Part shown: piece after piece, positions 1 through 23,995 of the stretch
Numbering within the stretch: position 1 is the first letter of the stretch
Layout of the letters: each line of letters starts with the position of its first letter
Assembly: GCA_964373855.1 (NCBI GenBank)
Contig: CAYJWL010000004.1
Coordinates: 1-45,390 of the forward strand
DNA: 45,390 nucleotides
Direction of reading: 5' to 3'
DNA from: an uncultured Candidatus Saccharibacteria bacterium
GTDB taxonomy: Bacteria > Patescibacteriota > Andersenbacteria > UBA10190
Made by a program: the position numbers and the translations under genes
Notes under the pieces: generated by a model
Told to the model about the DNA's origin: nothing
The model's database searches: none
What the model saw: the letters and a program-made list of their open reading frames with translations, nothing else

Positions 1-614
1 TCCTCGTCGTAGCGACGAAGAACCGCCCGGACAATTCCCTGAATAACCGGGGTTTTTGTAAAGATCGGTTTCATTTTTTTATTGGCTGGTTGCAAACGGA
101 TGCGGTCGAGCTCGCGGTAGTATCTTTTTAATGTCGCATGGTCATTGTCAAGAAGCGCGACAACGGTGTCGCCGTTATTTGGATAGAAGTTCCGTTCAAC
201 TATGACATAGTCTCCATCAAGAATGCCGTCTTCGATCATGGAATCTCCGCTGACCTTAAGAACATAGCAATTGAGATTAGGCAACAACTCAATCGGCACC
301 GTCATTGCTTCTCTGCCCTCGATGGCTTCAATCGGCTTGCCGGCGGCAATCAAACCGACCAGGGGCAATTCAATACCCTTCGTAAATACGTTCGATTTTT
401 CCGTAAGTTCAGCAGATCGCATCTGCCCATCGCGCAGGCGAATGTACCCCTTTTCCTTCAATTGCTGCACATGATTGTAGGCAGTGGCCGGGGATTTAAT
501 GCCCAAAGCTCTCATAACCTCACGGTAGCTGGGGGCATAGTTATGATTGGCGAGAAACTCCCGAATGACATTCAGCGTTTCGCTTTGTTTTTTGGTGAGA
601 TCGCTGTAAGGCAC
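1..614 (-). CDS. lexA: LexA repressor (S24 peptidase family); the last C-terminal residues run off the window edge
   Basis: My reverse-strand translation from GTG (614-612) is stop-free down to position 1. It reads VPYSDLTKKQSETLNVIREFL..SYREVMRALGIKSPATAYNHVQQLKEKGYI (winged HTH), then VLKVSGDSMIEDGILDGDYVIV (catalytic Ser), HATLKRYY (catalytic Lys) and IQGIVRAVLRRY. An in-frame TGA lies just upstream of the GTG. The ORF is absent from the track because it has no stop inside the window. Confidence 0.88.
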   Translation of the reverse strand, partial: MPYSDLTKKQSETLNVIREFLANHNYAPSYREVMRALGIKSPATAYNHVQQLKEKGYIRLRDGQMRSAELTEKSNVFTKGIELPLVGLIAAGKPIEAIEGREAMTVPIELLPNLNCYVLKVSGDSMIEDGILDGDYVIVERNFYPNNGDTVVALLDNDHATLKRYYRELDRIRLQPANKKMKPIFTKTPVIQGIVRAVLRRYDE

Positions 615-624
615 AGGTGGTCAT

Positions 625-666
625 TAGAAATTAGAAAGTAGAAATTGGAAATTAGAACCGGAAACA
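625..666. repeat. Six tandem 7-nt units T(A/G)GAAA(T/G) in the lexA leader
   Basis: Direct reading gives TAGAAAT TAGAAAG TAGAAAT TGGAAAT TAGAACC GGAAACA. Similar heptad runs occur at 1309-1336 and 6742-6769. Confidence 0.7.
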
Positions 667-669
667 GAC

Positions 670-688
670 AATGTATACGAACATTATA
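670..688 (-). promoter_or_regulatory. lexA -10 box overlapped by an inverted repeat; candidate LexA operator
   Basis: The minus strand reads TATAAT (688..683). The repeat AATGT-N6-ACATT (670-685) overlaps it. This position fits autoregulation, but the spacing differs from the CTGT-N8-ACAG and GAAC-N4-GTTC consensus boxes. Confidence 0.3.
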
Positions 689-853
689 GCAACAAACAAA
701 AAGAGATAGCAGAGAAGTTATACACAGTTCGACGCGGCTGCTTTAGCTACAGCCTGGCTCACCCAAAAACACAGAGTGTGATCCAGGCCCCCGGTGTTGT
801 ATTATTTCCCGTTATCCATTACAGATTACTGGTTACAAGTTATTATATGACTT

Positions 854-18878: not shown

Positions 18879-19143
18879 GGTATTACTGTTTGTGTTTAGA
18901 AATTAAACTGTCTTGCAGGCCGTTGCTTTTTAGGCGAGGTCAGCCCTCCTTCGCGTGAAGCTATGGACGGCATAGGCCGATAGCCTGTTTCTGTAAGCAA
19001 TCTTTCCTCGTCTTTAGGCGAAGTTGCTTGCAGGCCGAAGCCTTGGCGAAGGCCTGTGGAAAACATCAGATTTAGTATACCATAGATTGCAATAAGAGGG
19101 AAATCCAGTTAGGCTATAGCAGTTAGATACAGTGTAAGTATGA

Positions 19144-19216
19144 GCGTCCGTAGCTCAGTTGGTAGAGCAGTGGCCTTTTAAGCCAACGGTCGTGGGTTCG
19201 ATTCCCTCCGGACGCA
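19144..19216 (+). tRNA. tRNA-Lys (anticodon UUU)
   Basis: A hand-folded cloverleaf gives acceptor GCGUCCG/CGGACGC, D arm GCUC-AGUUGGUA-GAGC, and anticodon loop CUUUUAA (UUU at 19177-19179). The T arm is GUGGG-UUCGAUU-CCCUC and the discriminator is A. CCA is not encoded. There are two mismatches, G27-A43 and U50-U64. Confidence 0.9.
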
Positions 19217-19276
19217 CACAGTGCAAGACGGGGCTGACGGAATTAGGCAGCTGCCGGGCAAAATTGTCACCCGCAG

Positions 19277-19304
19277 TTGACAAAATTAAAGCAGGGAGTA
19301 TGTT
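19277..19304 (+). promoter_or_regulatory. Promoter TTGACA-N16-TATGTT upstream of the orphan ORF
   Basis: The -35 is at 19277-19282 and the -10 at 19299-19304. The in-frame ATG at 19311 lies 6 nt after the -10. Confidence 0.45.
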
Positions 19305-19403
19305 GAGCGTATGTCGCCTTGCGCGGCCTGTTATTTGCAGAATTTTCGCCAGCCAGCAGTGGATCGGCTGGTACTATCGGTGTCCTTGGAAGGAGTAGGG
19401 GGA

Positions 19404-19865
19404 ATGAGCAGTAACGGAAATGGAAGGTCTGGTGGCAAAAAGTGCGGGGGTAAGATCGTGCGGGATTTTACCATGGGAGAACTTGAAGCCCAAGCAAAAA
19501 GACGGGGCTTCCAGCTGGTTCTGAAAGATCCCGCAACACCTGCCTACTGCGGTTTTCTTGAGTGCGGCCATGATTTCCGTCGTAAGCAGCGCGTCCAGCT
19601 TGTGAAGGATCTCGGGTCAGGGCGAATTTGTTTATGGTGCGCTTATCGACACCAATGGCCGGCAATTCGGGCGATATATGTGCGTTGGGATGACTTGCTT
19701 TTCACAATTGCCAAGGTTGCCGGCTTTAAGCTGGTTCCGCTGGGTCAGATATCAGATGAGCTCCCCATACGGCAGGACAGTGAGCCCAACGGAAGAAAAA
19801 AACGCAGAATACGCCTGCGCCGCCGGTCAAGCCACCGCCCAGCGTACAGCCAGTTTCGGCACTAG
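19404..19865 (+). CDS. Orphan basic protein with Cys/His cluster (possible zinc ribbon); alternative leaderless start at 19311
   Basis: GGAAGGAG lies 8 nt upstream of ATG 19404. The product has CGFLECGH...CLWC and an Arg/Lys-rich tail GRKKRRIRLRRRSS. It is followed by a strong intrinsic terminator. I recognise no family. Confidence 0.5.
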   Translation: MSSNGNGRSGGKKCGGKIVRDFTMGELEAQAKRRGFQLVLKDPATPAYCGFLECGHDFRRKQRVQLVKDLGSGRICLWCAYRHQWPAIRAIYVRWDDLLFTIAKVAGFKLVPLGQISDELPIRQDSEPNGRKKRRIRLRRRSSHRPAYSQFRH

Positions 19866-19900
19866 CTGATTATATTCACAACGCGACTTCAGCAGTACAA

Positions 19901-19937
19901 GGCAGAGAAGCTTTAGAAGCATCTCTGCCTCTTTTTT
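19901..19937 (+). terminator. Rho-independent terminator
   Basis: The stem GGCAGAGA-(13 nt)-TCTCTGCC is followed by TCTTTTTTAT. Confidence 0.75.
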
Positions 19938-20031
19938 ATATATATATTCCCGTTCCGCTCTCTACTTCAGGGTCAAGCTGAACGGTCTAAGTATGGTCAC
20001 AGATCACTTCTATTAATACACTATGCACTTT

Positions 20032-20189
20032 AAAACACGCCCAGCACAATCCTGTGAGCGGCTTCTAAGGCTGTTTTGGCATAGTACCCGCCGAAGCGTT
20101 AGCGAAGGCGGGGCAAAACAGCCGCAGCCTCGGAAGCCCCGCGCTGGCGGAGCGAGAATGAGCGAACAAGATTGTGCTGGGCGTGCTTT
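20032..20189. repeat. 158-nt rod-like inverted-repeat element (function unknown; MITE-like or hairpin RNA)
   Basis: The outer arms are CACGCCCAGCACAATC (20036-20051) and GATTGTGCTGGGCGTG (20170-20185), a perfect 16 bp that extends to 19/20. An inner 10-bp helix pairs GGCTGTTTTG (20069-20078) with CAAAACAGCC (20114-20123). The apex hairpin is CCCGCC..GGCGGG. Confidence 0.6.
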
Positions 20190-20219
20190 CACGAAAGTAA
20201 AGAGGTACAAAGCCGAAGC

Positions 20220-20247
20220 TTGACATAATCTCATTTATGGTTATAAT
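20220..20247 (+). promoter_or_regulatory. Consensus sigma70 promoter TTGACA-N16-TATAAT with no adjacent CDS
   Basis: The -35 TTGACA is at 20220-20225 and the -10 TATAAT at 20242-20247. The nearest credible CDS (aspS) starts 610 nt downstream. Confidence 0.65.
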
Positions 20248-20288
20248 GACCAGTTCTTTAGATGTGCGTTTTTCGACAGTTTTCCAAC

Positions 20289-20457
20289 TTATCTGTGGTA
20301 AGGAGGGCCTTCTTTACGTGAAGAAGGGATGCTTTCCGCAACAGAGCTAAGGCAGTTTCCCCGCTTTACGGCGAGGCAGACTTTCTTCGTCTTGAGCAAA
20401 AAAGTGCTTCGTGTGGGCCTAAAGCCCATGCGAATGATCACTCTTTACCACAGATAA
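20289..20457 (+). ncRNA. Candidate structured RNA, ~170 nt, closed by a 17-bp helix, about 35 nt downstream of the predicted TSS
   Basis: UUAUCUGUGGUAAGGAG (20289-20305) pairs with CUCUUUACCACAGAUAA (20441-20457), giving 16 Watson-Crick pairs and one G-U. Internal hairpins are CCUUCUU-uacgug-AAGAAGG and UUCGUGUGGGC-cuaaa-GCCCAUGCGAA. I recognise no Rfam-class motif by eye. Confidence 0.4.
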
Positions 20458-20646
20458 AGGGGAAAGCAGCGATTGGTCATCTGCAGGTGTCATACTTGCA
20501 TTTTCCTGCCTGCCCGGTACAGTATTATGTTCTCTTTAAAACCTCTGCTGGTGCCTCGTACACGCTTGCATTCCTTAGCGATTTCATGAAGAGATTGTTG
20601 GGGAATGTGCGCCTTTGTGGTGCACAGTGTCCTTTACCTCAATTGA

Positions 20647-20756
20647 GGGGCGTATGAAGGAGCGCCCCGCATCCTAGGCATACGACCTTCTCGCCCCGCC
20701 CTATAAGCGGGGTGAGAACCTAGGAGAGTGCAGTTCGTTGCCGGACTTTACTCTCC
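20647..20756 (+). other. Three consecutive stable hairpins in the aspS upstream region
   Basis: The first is GGGGCG-(10)-CGCCCC (20647-20668). The second is CCUAGG..UUCUCGCCCCGC-ccuauaa-GCGGGGUGAGAA-CCUAGG (20673-20724). The third is GGAGAGU-(20)-ACUCUCC (20723-20756). Confidence 0.5.
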
Positions 20757-20856
20757 TGGGTATGAACGCGGCCGCGTCGGCGCACGGCAGCAGCCCCCTC
20801 AAGTATGGGTCAGCTGTATTTTTTTGGCTTTTGCCTTTACTCTGTACGCTATATCT

Positions 20857-22680
20857 ATGTCCAAAAGCCAGCATATTTCTGACACCGTTTACCGCACGCA
20901 TACCTGCGGAGAGTTGCGTCCCGATCACGCCGGATTGAGTGTTCGCTTGGCCGGATGGGTACATGCTCGGCGCGATCATGGCGGGCTGATTTTTATTGAC
21001 CTGCGCGACCGGTGGGGGATTACACAACTTACGTTTGATCCAAACAAGAACAACCAGCCCTGGCAATTAGCAGCTACTTTGCGTTCAGAGTTTGTTATTC
21101 AGGTCGAAGGGAAAGTAATGGCCCGGCCCAATGATATGGTGAACCCCGCTCTGCCTACCGGAGGAGTAGAAGTAGCAGTGAGTCACATGACCCTTTTAAG
21201 CGCCTCTGACCCTCTGCCCTTTGAGGTGGCAAAGGATGACCATGTGAACGAAGACATCCGTCTCAAATATCGCTTTCTTGACCTGCGCCGTCCTCGTCTG
21301 CGCGCCATACTGGAGCAGCGCGACCGGTTTATTAGTCACATCCGCCGCTACATGCAGCAGCATAGTTTTATTGAGGTACAAACGCCGATATTGGCGAACT
21401 CATCTCCTGAAGGAGCCCGGGATTATCTGGTGCCCAGCCGCCTCCACCCGGGAAAGTTTTACGCGTTACCGCAAGCGCCGCAGCAGTTCAAACAGTTACT
21501 GATGGTTGCCGGATTGGATCGGTATTTTCAGATCGCTCCGTGTTTCCGCGATGAAGATCCCCGAGCCGATCGCCATCCCGGCGAATTCTACCAATTGGAT
21601 TTAGAAATGAGTTTTGTGGCGCCGGAAGATGTTTTTGCTGTGGTCGAGCCGCTGATGATTGAGCTGACGGAAAGATTCAGCACCAAGGAGATTACAACCA
21701 AGCCGTTCCCGCGCATTCCCTGGAAAGAGGCCATGACGAAATACGGCACTGATAAGCCCGATTTGCGCTATGAACTTTTCATCAGCGACGTATCGAACAT
21801 TGTATCGGAGTCAAAATTTGAGGTTTTTGTCCAAGCTTTGGCAAACGGGGGAGTAGTCCATGCGCTGCACGTGCCGGGTGGCGCTGGCTTTACCCGAAAG
21901 GATATTGATGATCTCACGAACAAGGCTAAGATGTTGGGCGTAGGCGGTTTGGCCTATCTAAGCATCAAGGAAAAAGCCTCTTCTCCTATTCTAAAATACC
22001 TGGGCGAGCAGCTTGCTCAGCACGTTGTCCAGGCGGTGGGAGCCAGTCGAGGTGATATACTATTTTTTGCGGCGGGCAAATGGCCAGAAGTATCCCGGGC
22101 GCTGGGCGCCACCCGTGATCTGGCCGCGGCCAAACTGGGACTCAAGGATCCAGATAAAGCTGCCTGGGCCTGGGTAGTTGATTTTCCTATGTACGAATTC
22201 AACGAGGCAGCAGGAAAAATTGATTTTTCCCATAATCCTTTTTCTATGCCTCAAGGGGGGAAGGAAGCGCTGACTACTAAGGATCCGACAGCCATCGTGG
22301 GGTATCAATATGATCTGGCTCTCAATGGCTTTGAGATCAGTTCGGGCGCGATCCGCAACCACGATCCCGAGCTCATGTACCAGGCCTTCGCCATTGCCGG
22401 CTATGCCCGCCGCGAGGTTGATGCAAAATTCGGCGGCTTGATTTCGGCATTTCGTTACGGCGCGCCGCCTCATGGCGGCTTGGCTCCGGGCATTGACCGG
22501 TTGATGATGGTGCTCTTTGACGTGGATAGCATCCGTGATATTTACGCGTTTCCCAAAAATGGACGCGCTCAAGATGTTTTGATGGGAGCGCCGTCAAAAG
22601 TCGACGATATATTGCTGCGCGATCTTCATCTCAAGCTAGATATACCGGGCAACAAGACTGGACAGGGAGAGGCGGCATGA
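20857..22680 (+). CDS. aspS: Aspartate--tRNA ligase (bacterial type with GAD insertion)
   Basis: The product has RTHTCGELR, WVHARRDHGGLIFIDLRD, FRDEDPRADR (motif 2) and GGLAPGIDRLMM (motif 3). I moved the start from 20728 to ATG 20857 (MSKSQHISD). Confidence 0.95.
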   Translation: MSKSQHISDTVYRTHTCGELRPDHAGLSVRLAGWVHARRDHGGLIFIDLRDRWGITQLTFDPNKNNQPWQLAATLRSEFVIQVEGKVMARPNDMVNPALPTGGVEVAVSHMTLLSASDPLPFEVAKDDHVNEDIRLKYRFLDLRRPRLRAILEQRDRFISHIRRYMQQHSFIEVQTPILANSSPEGARDYLVPSRLHPGKFYALPQAPQQFKQLLMVAGLDRYFQIAPCFRDEDPRADRHPGEFYQLDLEMSFVAPEDVFAVVEPLMIELTERFSTKEITTKPFPRIPWKEAMTKYGTDKPDLRYELFISDVSNIVSESKFEVFVQALANGGVVHALHVPGGAGFTRKDIDDLTNKAKMLGVGGLAYLSIKEKASSPILKYLGEQLAQHVVQAVGASRGDILFFAAGKWPEVSRALGATRDLAAAKLGLKDPDKAAWAWVVDFPMYEFNEAAGKIDFSHNPFSMPQGGKEALTTKDPTAIVGYQYDLALNGFEISSGAIRNHDPELMYQAFAIAGYARREVDAKFGGLISAFRYGAPPHGGLAPGIDRLMMVLFDVDSIRDIYAFPKNGRAQDVLMGAPSKVDDILLRDLHLKLDIPGNKTGQGEAA

Positions 22681-22780: not shown

Positions 22781-23995
22781 ATGACTGTGAATGTTCCTAT
22801 AAACTCAAGAGGCGGCCGCATACGACGATATGCCGGTTTCCTGACGCTCCTTCTCCTGGGCCTGGTGATTGGCCGGTATGTTGTTCCCTTCAACGCCGGT
22901 CTCTCTGGTCCTCTGGAGGTGGTATCCAATGTCAACGGCAACCGCCAATTTGCATTTCCTACTTTTTGGGAAGCGTGGGATACGCTGCACACACATTATA
23001 TAGACAAGCTGGATGATCTGGATCTTTTTTATGGTGCGGTGGCTGGGATGGTGCGGGCCACGGGCGATCCTTACACCGTCTTTGCTGATCCGCAGGATAC
23101 AAAGCAGTTTCAGGAGACACTACAAGGCGAGTTTTCCGGCGTGGGCGTGGAAATCGGGGTGCGCAACGGCCTGATAACTGTAATCGCGCCCCTGGAAGGA
23201 TCTCCGGCTGATGCTGCCGGTGTGCTGGAGGGGGATGTCATCGTGGCGGTTGATGATGACCCTATCACACAAGATATGTCCATTGATGATGTTGTTCAGC
23301 GGATACGCGGCCCCAAAGGTGCCACAGTGATACTCACTGTCATACATCAGGGCGAGAACGACACTCAGGACATTTCAGTTGTCCGGCAGACAATTGCGGT
23401 CGCCAGTGTAAAATTGAGCACAGACGCCGGCATTGCTCGTTTCGAAATCACGAGCTTTAGCGAAGACACGGCCGGGCGGTTTGCACAACTTGCTCAAGAG
23501 GCCAAGAATCAAAAGGTGAAAGGCGTGATAGTGGATGTGCGCGGTAATCCAGGCGGATTCTTGCAAAGCGCAGTTGATATTAGCTCTTACTTTCTAAAGG
23601 CCGGAACTACTGTTGTAAGCGAGCGGGGCAAGACAGATAAAGAATATAAAGCTCGGCGCGGATCCCTGTTTGTCGATACGCCAACGGTTGTTTTGGTGAA
23701 CCGCGGCTCGGCCTCAGCCTCAGAAATTTTAGCCGGTGCGCTGCAAGATCAGCGCCAGGTGCCGATTGTCGGAACCAAGACGTTTGGCAAAGGATCGGTT
23801 CAGGAATTGTTAACCTTAAAAGACGGTTCGAGCTTGCGCGTGACGGTGGCTAAGTGGTATACGCCCAGTGGTCGGTCCATCAGCGACGAAGGGATTGAGC
23901 CAACTACTGAAGTTGAGGACAATCGCGAAACAGATGAGGACGAACAGTTGGAGGCGGCGCTGGAAATGTTAGAGAAAACTATTAGTTCCAGTTGA
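22781..23995 (+). CDS. Carboxyl-terminal processing protease (S41 family, PDZ domain)
   Basis: An N-terminal TM anchor is followed by a PDZ domain (GDVIVAVDD). S41 motifs are DVRGNPGGFL, GSASASEILAGAL and TFGKGSVQ. Confidence 0.85.
   Translation: MTVNVPINSRGGRIRRYAGFLTLLLLGLVIGRYVVPFNAGLSGPLEVVSNVNGNRQFAFPTFWEAWDTLHTHYIDKLDDLDLFYGAVAGMVRATGDPYTVFADPQDTKQFQETLQGEFSGVGVEIGVRNGLITVIAPLEGSPADAAGVLEGDVIVAVDDDPITQDMSIDDVVQRIRGPKGATVILTVIHQGENDTQDISVVRQTIAVASVKLSTDAGIARFEITSFSEDTAGRFAQLAQEAKNQKVKGVIVDVRGNPGGFLQSAVDISSYFLKAGTTVVSERGKTDKEYKARRGSLFVDTPTVVLVNRGSASASEILAGALQDQRQVPIVGTKTFGKGSVQELLTLKDGSSLRVTVAKWYTPSGRSISDEGIEPTTEVEDNRETDEDEQLEAALEMLEKTISSS

Follow-up and report, generated by a model that had tools for sequence, protein, structure and literature searches.

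Units A and B, a clade-specific pair of structured RNAs 5' of aspS in Andersenbacteria-like genomes, with Unit B as a candidate antitermination leader

What is understood of feedback control of aminoacyl-tRNA synthetase (aaRS) genes comes mainly from T-boxes and from a small number of mechanisms based on proteins, and to our knowledge small-molecule riboswitches do not typically control genes of this kind. A further design of RNA-based control is represented by the pbuE adenine riboswitch, an ON-type transcriptional switch in which the closing helix of the aptamer is itself the antiterminator. The locus described here, from an ultra-small uncultured bacterial lineage, bears comparison with both designs. 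It lies on contig CAYJWL010000004.1, in a stretch of 45,390 nucleotides (nt) that as a whole (45 kb) is called the window below, within the 991 nt (19866-20856) directly 5' of aspS, the gene for aspartyl-tRNA synthetase (AspRS); loci from relatives that were compared with the window carry L-numbers (L001 and so on). The conserved part of this region, 20220-20761, consists of two tandem units, A and B, which are a clade-specific pair of previously undescribed structured RNAs. No description of such RNAs was found in the literature, and Rfam searches of the window and of relatives at gathering and E-value thresholds gave no match for either unit. With a confidence only a little above even, we read Unit B as a new, non-T-box antitermination leader of aspS, that is, a conditional terminator/antiterminator with tRNA-Asp status as its favoured effector.

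A suitable point of departure is provided by the sister phyla, in which the T-box model (RF00230) finds leaders directly 5' of aspS at 45-63 bits and E of 1e-6 to 1e-11. These are short canonical T-boxes in Falkowbacteria-like genomes of the candidate phyla radiation (CPR):

L002, 3685-3839: T-box 5' of aspS
L003, 3708-3866: T-box 5' of aspS
L007, 3643-3852: T-box 5' of aspS
L011, 3703-3861: T-box 5' of aspS

Because their scores lie below the Rfam gathering score of 93 bits, default annotation misses CPR T-boxes, an annotation gap in genomes that also appear to rely on leaderless initiation free of Shine-Dalgarno sequences. In other CPR phyla, GGUGGCACCGCG-type sequences were seen by inspection 5' of aspS. 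A specifier-like hairpin loop, recognised by eye, reads GAC-A in L011 and AAC-A (an Asn codon) in L002 and L003. The same model gave no match at E <= 10 in window 19000-21000, in window 20248-20512 or in L001 3500-3990, and none in the whole window at E <= 0.05. The first-pass annotation of the window had seen no T-box motifs upstream of aspS, and this is borne out, with the sister-phyla aspS T-boxes serving as the positive control. Since the model is positive in sister phyla and negative in the window and L001, the Andersenbacteria-like clade is, on this evidence, without the T-box that its relatives carry at aspS, and has Units A and B there instead.

Homology of the region was established with nhmmer, by which 20218-20730 of the window aligns to the region 5' of aspS in L001 (E = 1.7e-25), the match beginning exactly at the promoter. 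Homologues came from three sources, namely contigs coding for close AspRS relatives (L081-L084, L110-L115), a single scan of metagenome contigs for the most strongly conserved core of 32 nt, blind to gene context, and one Andersenbacteria contig reached via purC (L153). After duplicates and seven chance matches had been dropped, about 25 distinct homologues remained, all of them in Andersenbacteria-like CPR genomes; the discarded metagenome matches (L086, L092, L097, L099, L101, L102, L104) lay in coding or archaeal contexts or were without the H2 hairpin of Unit B. Roughly 70 aspS loci from other phyla include none that matches Units A or B, and a scan of viral contigs with a relaxed Unit B pattern returned 37 matches, all of them chance and none fitting the profile of either unit. 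In every locus with enough sequence, Unit A lies 5' of Unit B on the same strand at a variable spacing, and compensatory changes were found in both units. In L098 and L112 the two are contiguous with no promoter or terminator between them, so that in these loci A and B would form one long transcript or leader.

Unit B has the following parts:

20496-20532, + strand: promoter and start module of Unit B (TTGCAT-16-TACAGT, 5 nt, GTTC)
about 20529-20761, + strand: Unit B as a whole (21-sequence alignment)
20606-20626, + strand: hairpin H1 (UGUGCGCC / GGUGCACA), in which five of seven pairs change on both sides among the 21 sequences
20647-20668, + strand: hairpin H2, a stem of 6 base pairs (bp) with the loop U-N-U-GAAGGAG, in which GAAGGAG is invariant
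20672-20725, + strand: antiterminator-like domain, closed by helix P3 (20672-20678 with 20719-20725)
20679-20687, + strand: invariant 9-nt 5' bulge of P3, CAUACGACC
20688-20718, + strand: variable inner hairpin P3a
20719-20760, + strand: terminator-like hairpin of 42 nt, with the 3' strand of P3 inside its 5' arm (CCUAGGAGAGUG)

Further stable hairpins had been noted earlier in this region, and such hairpins are confirmed at H1, H2, P3a and the terminator-like hairpin. H1 is followed by a conserved linker, CAGUGUyCUUU...CAAAAnnAG. H2 is 100% paired, as GGGGCG/CGCCCC in the window versus GCCCCG/CGGGGC or GCCGCG/CGCGGC elsewhere, and the GCA joint between H2 and P3 is invariant. P3, with the consensus UCCYRGG / CCYRGGA, is likewise 100% paired in the 21 sequences, its central pair being AU in 11, GC in six and CG in four; its bulge reads CAUACGACC in 23 of 24 sequences and UAUACGACC in the remaining one. 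The sequences of P3a are unrelated, yet always hairpin-forming where P3a is present; it is absent in L096 and L108, and in the variants 5' of archaeal-type aspS there is no inner hairpin and CAUACGACC is a plain loop of P3. Across H1, H2 and P3 together, 97.8% of cells are paired and 12 of the 20 pairs are changed on both sides, a result reached in 0 of 500 shuffles (slid controls, 25-59%). Unit B also contains many G-U pairs, which would be A-C mismatches on the other strand; both units are, as judged from the alignments, real RNAs of the + strand. Covariation of H1, H2 and P3 combined with an invariant GAAGGAG loop, GCA joint and CAUACGACC bulge is what is generally expected of a riboswitch.

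The central feature of Unit B is the sharing of one strand between two helices. The terminator-like hairpin, with the consensus CCYRGGAGAGUG...yACUCUyCYRGG around unrelated inner sequences, occurs in 24 of 24 homologues at -18 to -33 kcal/mol, is 93.7% paired with seven of its 12 pairs changing on both sides, and keeps its overlap with P3 in all 24. Alignment columns 203-209 pair with columns 122-128 in P3 and with columns 258-264 in the hairpin, and both pairings covary: column 205, for example, pairs with 126 in P3 (AU:11, GC:6, CG:4) and with 262 in the hairpin (CG, UG, GC, UA). As they share these nucleotides, P3 and the terminator-like hairpin are mutually exclusive, and three strands that co-vary in this way are the mark of a switch. 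For the window sequence, the terminator state is calculated at -117.0 kcal/mol versus -103.6 kcal/mol with P3 forced, and a transcript ending before the third strand folds with P3; such model energetics fit a co-transcriptional, kinetically controlled antiterminator/terminator. The U-run after the hairpin is clear in L001, L005, L083, L107 and L114, and weak in L094 and L115. Other interpretations of single elements were discarded. Neither the bulge nor the terminator 3' arm shows covariation that would support a pseudoknot with the H2 loop; GAAGGAG is not followed by a start codon, as a real Shine-Dalgarno sequence or a leader peptide would demand; and hammerhead core, RNase P CR-I, tmRNA and SRP motifs, compared by eye, gave isolated single-sequence coincidences only.

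The gene that follows Unit B is, in most loci, one for AspRS, whose start codon lies 1-135 nt beyond the end of the Unit B hairpin. The enzymes encoded there are of three non-orthologous kinds, namely a bacterial AspRS with GAD domain, a shorter bacterial AspRS without it (L087/L091) and an archaeal-type Asp-tRNA(Asn) ligase. The last of these, a non-discriminating AspRS of 454-456 amino acids (aa) that scores 508 bits in NCBIfam, replaces the bacterial type in L093, L095, L096 and L108. The start codon of the archaeal-type gene abuts the Unit B hairpin. Genes 5' of Unit A vary by locus, and the linkage of A, B and aspS persists.

The favoured reading can be set out as follows. Unit B would be transcribed from its own promoter (about 20529 onward) and fold into H1, H2 and P3, and P3 would present its invariant bulge, CAUACGACC, beside the GAAGGAG loop, which is likewise invariant. 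An effector that holds this fold would keep the 3' strand of P3 (CCUAGGA) sequestered and the 42-nt hairpin blocked, and RNA polymerase would read into aspS; without the effector, the downstream strand (ACUCUCCUGGG) would displace the 5' strand of P3, and the resulting, much more stable hairpin would end or block the transcript. The data show conservation, covariation, the exclusive pairings, the promoters and the association with AspRS genes; control of termination, its direction (ON when bound) and the effector are what we infer here. As effector, tRNA-Asp status is the favoured guess, the invariant GAC triplet of the bulge possibly being read by the GUC anticodon; it is favoured because Unit B stands in for a T-box, because its association is specific to AspRS and because of this GAC in the bulge. 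The effector may instead be a small molecule or a protein. The loci compared contain no tRNA-Asp sequence. If tRNA-Asp were sensed, Unit B would represent a second, independent RNA solution to tRNA sensing, and if a metabolite were sensed, a new riboswitch class controlling an aaRS. The conserved core of about 60-130 nt is small enough for direct biochemical and structural work.

The likeness to T-boxes concerns position and topology. Unit B also lies 5' of an aaRS gene, in the same position as the aspS T-boxes of the sister phyla; its 3' half likewise runs from a hairpin through 3 nt into a helix with a 5' bulge ending in ACC and an inner helix, a hairpin standing 3-4 nt ahead of the antiterminator in both systems; and the 3' strand of its antiterminator is common to the terminator hairpin, giving mutually exclusive pairings upstream of AspRS in most loci. 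The differences, however, concern the defining features of the class. The 9-nt bulge CAUACGACC is without UGG, unlike UGGNACC, and offers no complement to the NCCA end of tRNA; the consensus of Units A and B contains no Stem I, specifier loop, K-turn, distal platform or F-box (CCGUUA), and the only invariant Asp codon (GAC) sits within the antiterminator bulge itself. Unit B furthermore has the invariant GAAGGAG loop, a U-tract in some copies only, and a companion, Unit A, with a promoter of its own. By its defining features Unit B is therefore no T-box, but by analogy it plausibly does the same job.

That Unit B could nevertheless be a true T-box, extremely diverged from that of the sister phyla and still binding the acceptor end of tRNA-Asp, was also considered. 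It would share with these T-boxes its genomic position, its antiterminator topology and the ACC at the end of the bulge (as in UGGNACC), and CPR T-boxes are already short and below the Rfam threshold. This descent is improbable, however, given that the T-box covariance model finds no match at E <= 10, that the invariant bulge has no UGG to pair with NCCA, that no F-box, specifier hairpin or K-turn can be recognised, and that no intermediate forms occur among 80 genome loci.

The second comparison is with riboswitches of the pbuE type. As in these, one strand of Unit B serves both as the 3' strand of the stabilised helix and as the 5' strand of the terminator, the aptamer-like fold forms first in transcription while thermodynamics favour the terminator state, and a compact conserved core carries variable peripheral hairpins. 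Unit B differs in that it matches no known aptamer fold or Rfam family. Taken with its companion, it forms a new RNA family that would operate in the manner of an established type of system.

Unit A, the companion, was folded with RNAalifold on 15 homologues and comprises:

20220-20256, + strand: promoter and start module of Unit A (TTGACA-16-TATAAT, 5 nt, GTTC)
20253-20506, + strand: Unit A RNA, about 200-250 nt
20281-20305 / 20441-20465, + strand: closing helix P1, about 23 bp
20308-20327, + strand: optional hairpin
about 20338-20397, + strand: P2, a long imperfect hairpin
20408-20434, + strand: P3 of Unit A, a hairpin
20482-20500, + strand: terminal hairpin, followed by TTTT and terminator-like

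The domain closed by a long helix that had been proposed from the window alone is recovered as P1, with arms of 25 nt that are 84% complementary. Of 47 predicted pairs, 33 have compensatory changes, and 92.6% of cells are paired compared with 76.5% in shuffles, 0 of 500 of which reach this value (slid controls, 43-49%). The long imperfect hairpin has conserved internal loops (GCAACAUAGCU / CUUGAG), the loop of a further hairpin is usually CCUACUGC, and in most loci there is a U-run after the closing helix or after an additional hairpin. As a structured RNA, Unit A stands apart from B, with which it would be co-transcribed in some relatives. Two possible contacts between the units were rejected on inspection, as complementarity is not kept across loci either between the Unit A loop CCUACUGC and GCAGUG of Unit B or between GGUCGUGUG of Unit A and the Unit B bulge.

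Both units share a start module. The consensus promoter TTGACA-16-TATAAT reported earlier is confirmed at 20220-20247, with 12/12 matches to the sigma-70 consensus, and the same module stands at the homologous position in relatives. In the window, the -35 element of Unit B overlaps the terminal hairpin of Unit A in its 3' arm; most relatives have a homologous TTGCAn-16/17-TAnAnT-N5-GTTC before Unit B, which L098 and L112 do not have. Exactly two copies of the composite pattern TTG-N19-TAnnnT-N5-GTTC, at 20220 and 20496, are found in the whole 45 kb versus 0.05 expected, and from its presence at both units it follows that both RNAs are predicted to begin with GUUC. The GUUC start (20253-20256, 20529-20532 and homologous positions in relatives) is usually followed by a U/A-rich stretch (GUUCnUUnAAAA). 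This 5' module is shared by two RNAs that are otherwise different.

Several findings weigh against Unit B as a leader of aspS. The first is a promoter-like element directly at the gene:

20824-20859, + strand: proximal promoter-like element and start codon of aspS (TTGGCT-15-TACGCT-6-ATG; start codon at 20857)

The window version, with its short 15-nt spacer, is a weaker variant of TTGCTC-17-TACNCT-6/7-ATG, which precedes aspS in 12 of about 19 relatives' loci; given this element, aspS could probably be transcribed, independent of Unit B, as a leaderless mRNA starting at a promoter of its own. The first-pass annotation had suggested that aspS might have a regulatory leader of a kind not yet described, and for Unit B, in the 3' part, this is the reading with the best support; a simple long 5' untranslated region is not upheld, given the proximal element. 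In addition, a U-run follows only about one in three of the hairpins of Unit B, that of the window being without one (TATGAAC). In L006, L089/L105 and L106, B is separated from aspS by a convergent STAS-domain gene and a strong terminator, an insertion that is absent from the closely related L005. The gene after B is purC in L094 and an unknown open reading frame (ORF) in L100. Units A and B have separate promoters, with a 500-aa gene between them in L110, which gives them the look of independent RNAs. With regard to the effector, there is no UGGN and no Stem I-like platform, and the match to tRNA-Asp is only a codon-like one of 3 nt.

The inserted gene of L006, L089 and L106 encodes 122-126 aa, resembles by eye a STAS-domain anti-sigma-factor antagonist, and is accompanied by a bidirectional terminator in one subclade:

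L006, about 400-780, minus strand: STAS-like gene
L089, 3595-3975, minus strand: STAS-like gene
L106, 2183-2551, minus strand: STAS-like gene

The purC case had raised the idea of an aspartate riboswitch, which is weakened by the Andersenbacteria locus L153, where purC, 2 kb away from aspS and on the opposite strand, has no Unit B, and A and B stand upstream of aspS as usual. Since purC is without Unit B there, the case does not generalise, and L094 seems to have been rearranged locally. In the window, the interval from the Unit B hairpin to the promoter-like element of aspS contains a weak hairpin and then a run of seven T (20788-20825), which, judged by sequence, could be the actual termination point in this genome.

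Much of this evidence would also suit two independent small RNA (sRNA) genes, trans-acting or housekeeping and with A perhaps 6S-like, that are merely syntenic with aspS, the hairpin being the terminator of B and aspS being expressed from its proximal leaderless promoter only. A promoter precedes each unit, Unit A finishes with a hairpin and U-run, aspS has its own element, the U-tract is missing from about two thirds of Unit B hairpins, and foreign genes can part B from aspS (the STAS gene, in one subclade) and A from B (L110). A long closing stem around an internal loop region, together with a perfect promoter, is also what an abundant RNA would have, and Bacillus subtilis 6S-1 likewise adjoins aspS according to the literature. 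Unit A does loosely resemble 6S RNA, being about 200 nt long with a strong consensus promoter, and having ends that form a long closing stem round an internal unpaired or branched region with a long internal hairpin; it differs in that the interior of its 23-bp stem is a multi-branch junction with conserved internal loops, not a simple central bubble, and in its linkage to Unit B. Searched over 265 nt (20248-20512), Unit A gave no match to the Rfam 6S models at E <= 10. A constitutive terminator, moreover, would not keep the covariation of P3, a helix that competes for the nucleotides of the hairpin and falls short of it in stability by about 13 kcal/mol; A, B and AspRS stay linked where the genes upstream have changed and where one type of AspRS has taken the place of another; in L096 the hairpin reaches right up to the AspRS start codon, leaving no room for a separate promoter; and sister phyla carry a cis-acting leader at the same position. 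Weighing both sides, we regard independent sRNA genes as a real possibility, albeit a doubtful one.

A broader version of the antitermination reading would hold that one CPR lineage replaced the aspS T-box by an unrelated two-RNA system, in which Unit B, a new class of antitermination sensor, reads tRNA-Asp (or the status of aspartate or AspRS) via the CAUACGACC bulge and GAAGGAG, and in which Unit A, always linked to it but transcribed separately, cooperates with it, perhaps in trans or as a second sensor. We put this forward tentatively, as a proposal more likely to fail than to hold. If true, it would describe a new form of aaRS feedback control in organisms without Shine-Dalgarno sequences or long leaders. 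In any case, the locus shows an ultra-small bacterial lineage in which the T-box appears to have been lost at aspS and in which a different, highly conserved switch RNA and a companion RNA are found there.

The remainder of the 991-nt region lies 5' of Unit A and is dominated by a palindrome:

20032-20189, strand undefined: rod-like palindrome of 158 nt (inverted repeat, fold z = -6.8)

The inverted repeat is present as first reported, with 35-nt arms (20032-20066 / 20155-20189) that are 80% complementary and a nested 10/10 helix; the segment 20020-20200 folds at -90.8 kcal/mol (z = -6.8), which 0 of 200 shuffles equal. No counterpart of it was found in L001, L084, other relatives or plasmid records, and the same holds for the whole 355 nt 5' of the Unit A promoter, palindrome included; in L084, the most syntenic relative, there are only about 55 nt between the upstream ORF and the promoter. 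For these reasons the palindrome is taken, from sequence comparison, as a lineage-specific insert upstream of the Unit A promoter and outside the conserved element.

This bears on the earlier suggestion of a single large ornate RNA of the GOLLD, ROOL or OLE type, about 1 kb long and including the palindrome. Helices are indeed dense and stable, the region as a whole folding at -411.7 kcal/mol on the + strand with a very low z of -13.95 against shuffles (- strand, z = -6.77), and a tRNA gene lies nearby. The palindrome, however, is upstream of the promoter and not conserved; there are two units, each with its own promoter and A with a terminator, and relatives have insertions between them, such as the gene in L110. 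Covariance models for GOLLD, ROOL, OLE and raiA gave no match at gathering thresholds or at E <= 10, and the wider Rfam check, T-box included, gave none for Units A or B. One ornate RNA is thus already contradicted and extremely unlikely. The tRNA that had been taken as a GOLLD- or ROOL-like sign looks like local synteny, with no GOLLD or ROOL resemblance. What does hold of the earlier proposal is a structured RNA beyond Rfam, matching none of GOLLD, ROOL, OLE, raiA, T-box and 6S at E <= 10; on the window the sole Rfam match at gathering thresholds and at E <= 10 is tRNA. Weak Rfam matches over the promoter or H2 were dismissed as chance, namely RAGATH-23 (- strand, 20179-20274, E = 0.02), IMPDH and a Betaproteobacteria toxic sRNA (L001, - strand).

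Another origin for so unusually long a gap with a palindromic insert would be a decayed gene or the remnant of a mobile element. The absence of a credible coding sequence from 19866-20856 is upheld by the ORF list, the longest ORF having 73 aa; as the first-pass annotation had stated, the ORFs are mirror images of the palindrome (73 aa, 20013-20234; 66 aa, 20023-20223), together with 20701-21066 (- strand), which runs antisense into aspS. Searches with tblastx against all relatives gave weak matches only, on both strands and in several frames, and confined to the RNA-conserved part, from which it follows that conservation is, as far as sequence can tell, at the nucleotide and not at the protein level. 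Translated searches for a frameshifted pseudogene, together with the ORF lists, thus gave no frame-consistent similarity and no coding signal, conservation tracks base pairs and not codons, and there is no similarity to plasmid records; a gene or element remnant can hardly be credited.

As regards the genomic setting, aspS occupies 20857-22680, and its product is at most 71% identical (<=71%) to anything in the genome collection, with best matches in metagenome-assembled genomes of Candidatus Andersenbacteria and in other Patescibacteria (CPR). The order of genes in the window is dnaK, an unknown ORF of 310 aa, dnaJ, an unknown gene on the - strand, tRNA-Lys(UUU), an orphan of 184 aa, the gap, aspS, an S41 protease and further genes including pyrG. 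The block of aspS, S41 protease, rplI and pyrG recurs in relatives, and the upstream genes vary by locus. A further hairpin lies at the upstream edge of the gap:

19900-19938, + strand: hairpin and T-run just after the upstream 184-aa ORF (inverted repeat with 14-nt arms, 93% complementary, then CTTTTTT)

From its form it is likely the intrinsic terminator of that ORF, outside the conserved RNAs. The tRNA-Lys(UUU) gene (window 19144-19217) is also found a few kb upstream of A, B and aspS in L001, L081, L084, L094, L096, L103, L106, L107 and L109, on either strand, which looks like shared gene order and not like a functional tie. A sub-threshold Rfam match to Rickettsia sRNA47 inside the S41 protease gene (window 23687-23808, - strand; 31 bits, E = 2e-4) is probably due to chance. 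The apex of the palindrome (CCCGCCGAAGCG..GCGAAGGCGGG) has short, weak matches in the CPR loci L002, L003, L085, L087 and L107, and the palindrome may be a recurrent hairpin or small repeat element.

No Shine-Dalgarno sequence was found before any of the 33 gene starts of the window. A hexamer resembling a -10 element, TAnnnT, stands 6-8 nt ahead of about ten of these starts (for example 19277-19313, 1317, 2901, 16119 and 42583), and the orphan gene starts with TTGACA-16-TATGTT-6-ATG; the pattern suggests that leaderless mRNAs may be widespread in this lineage.

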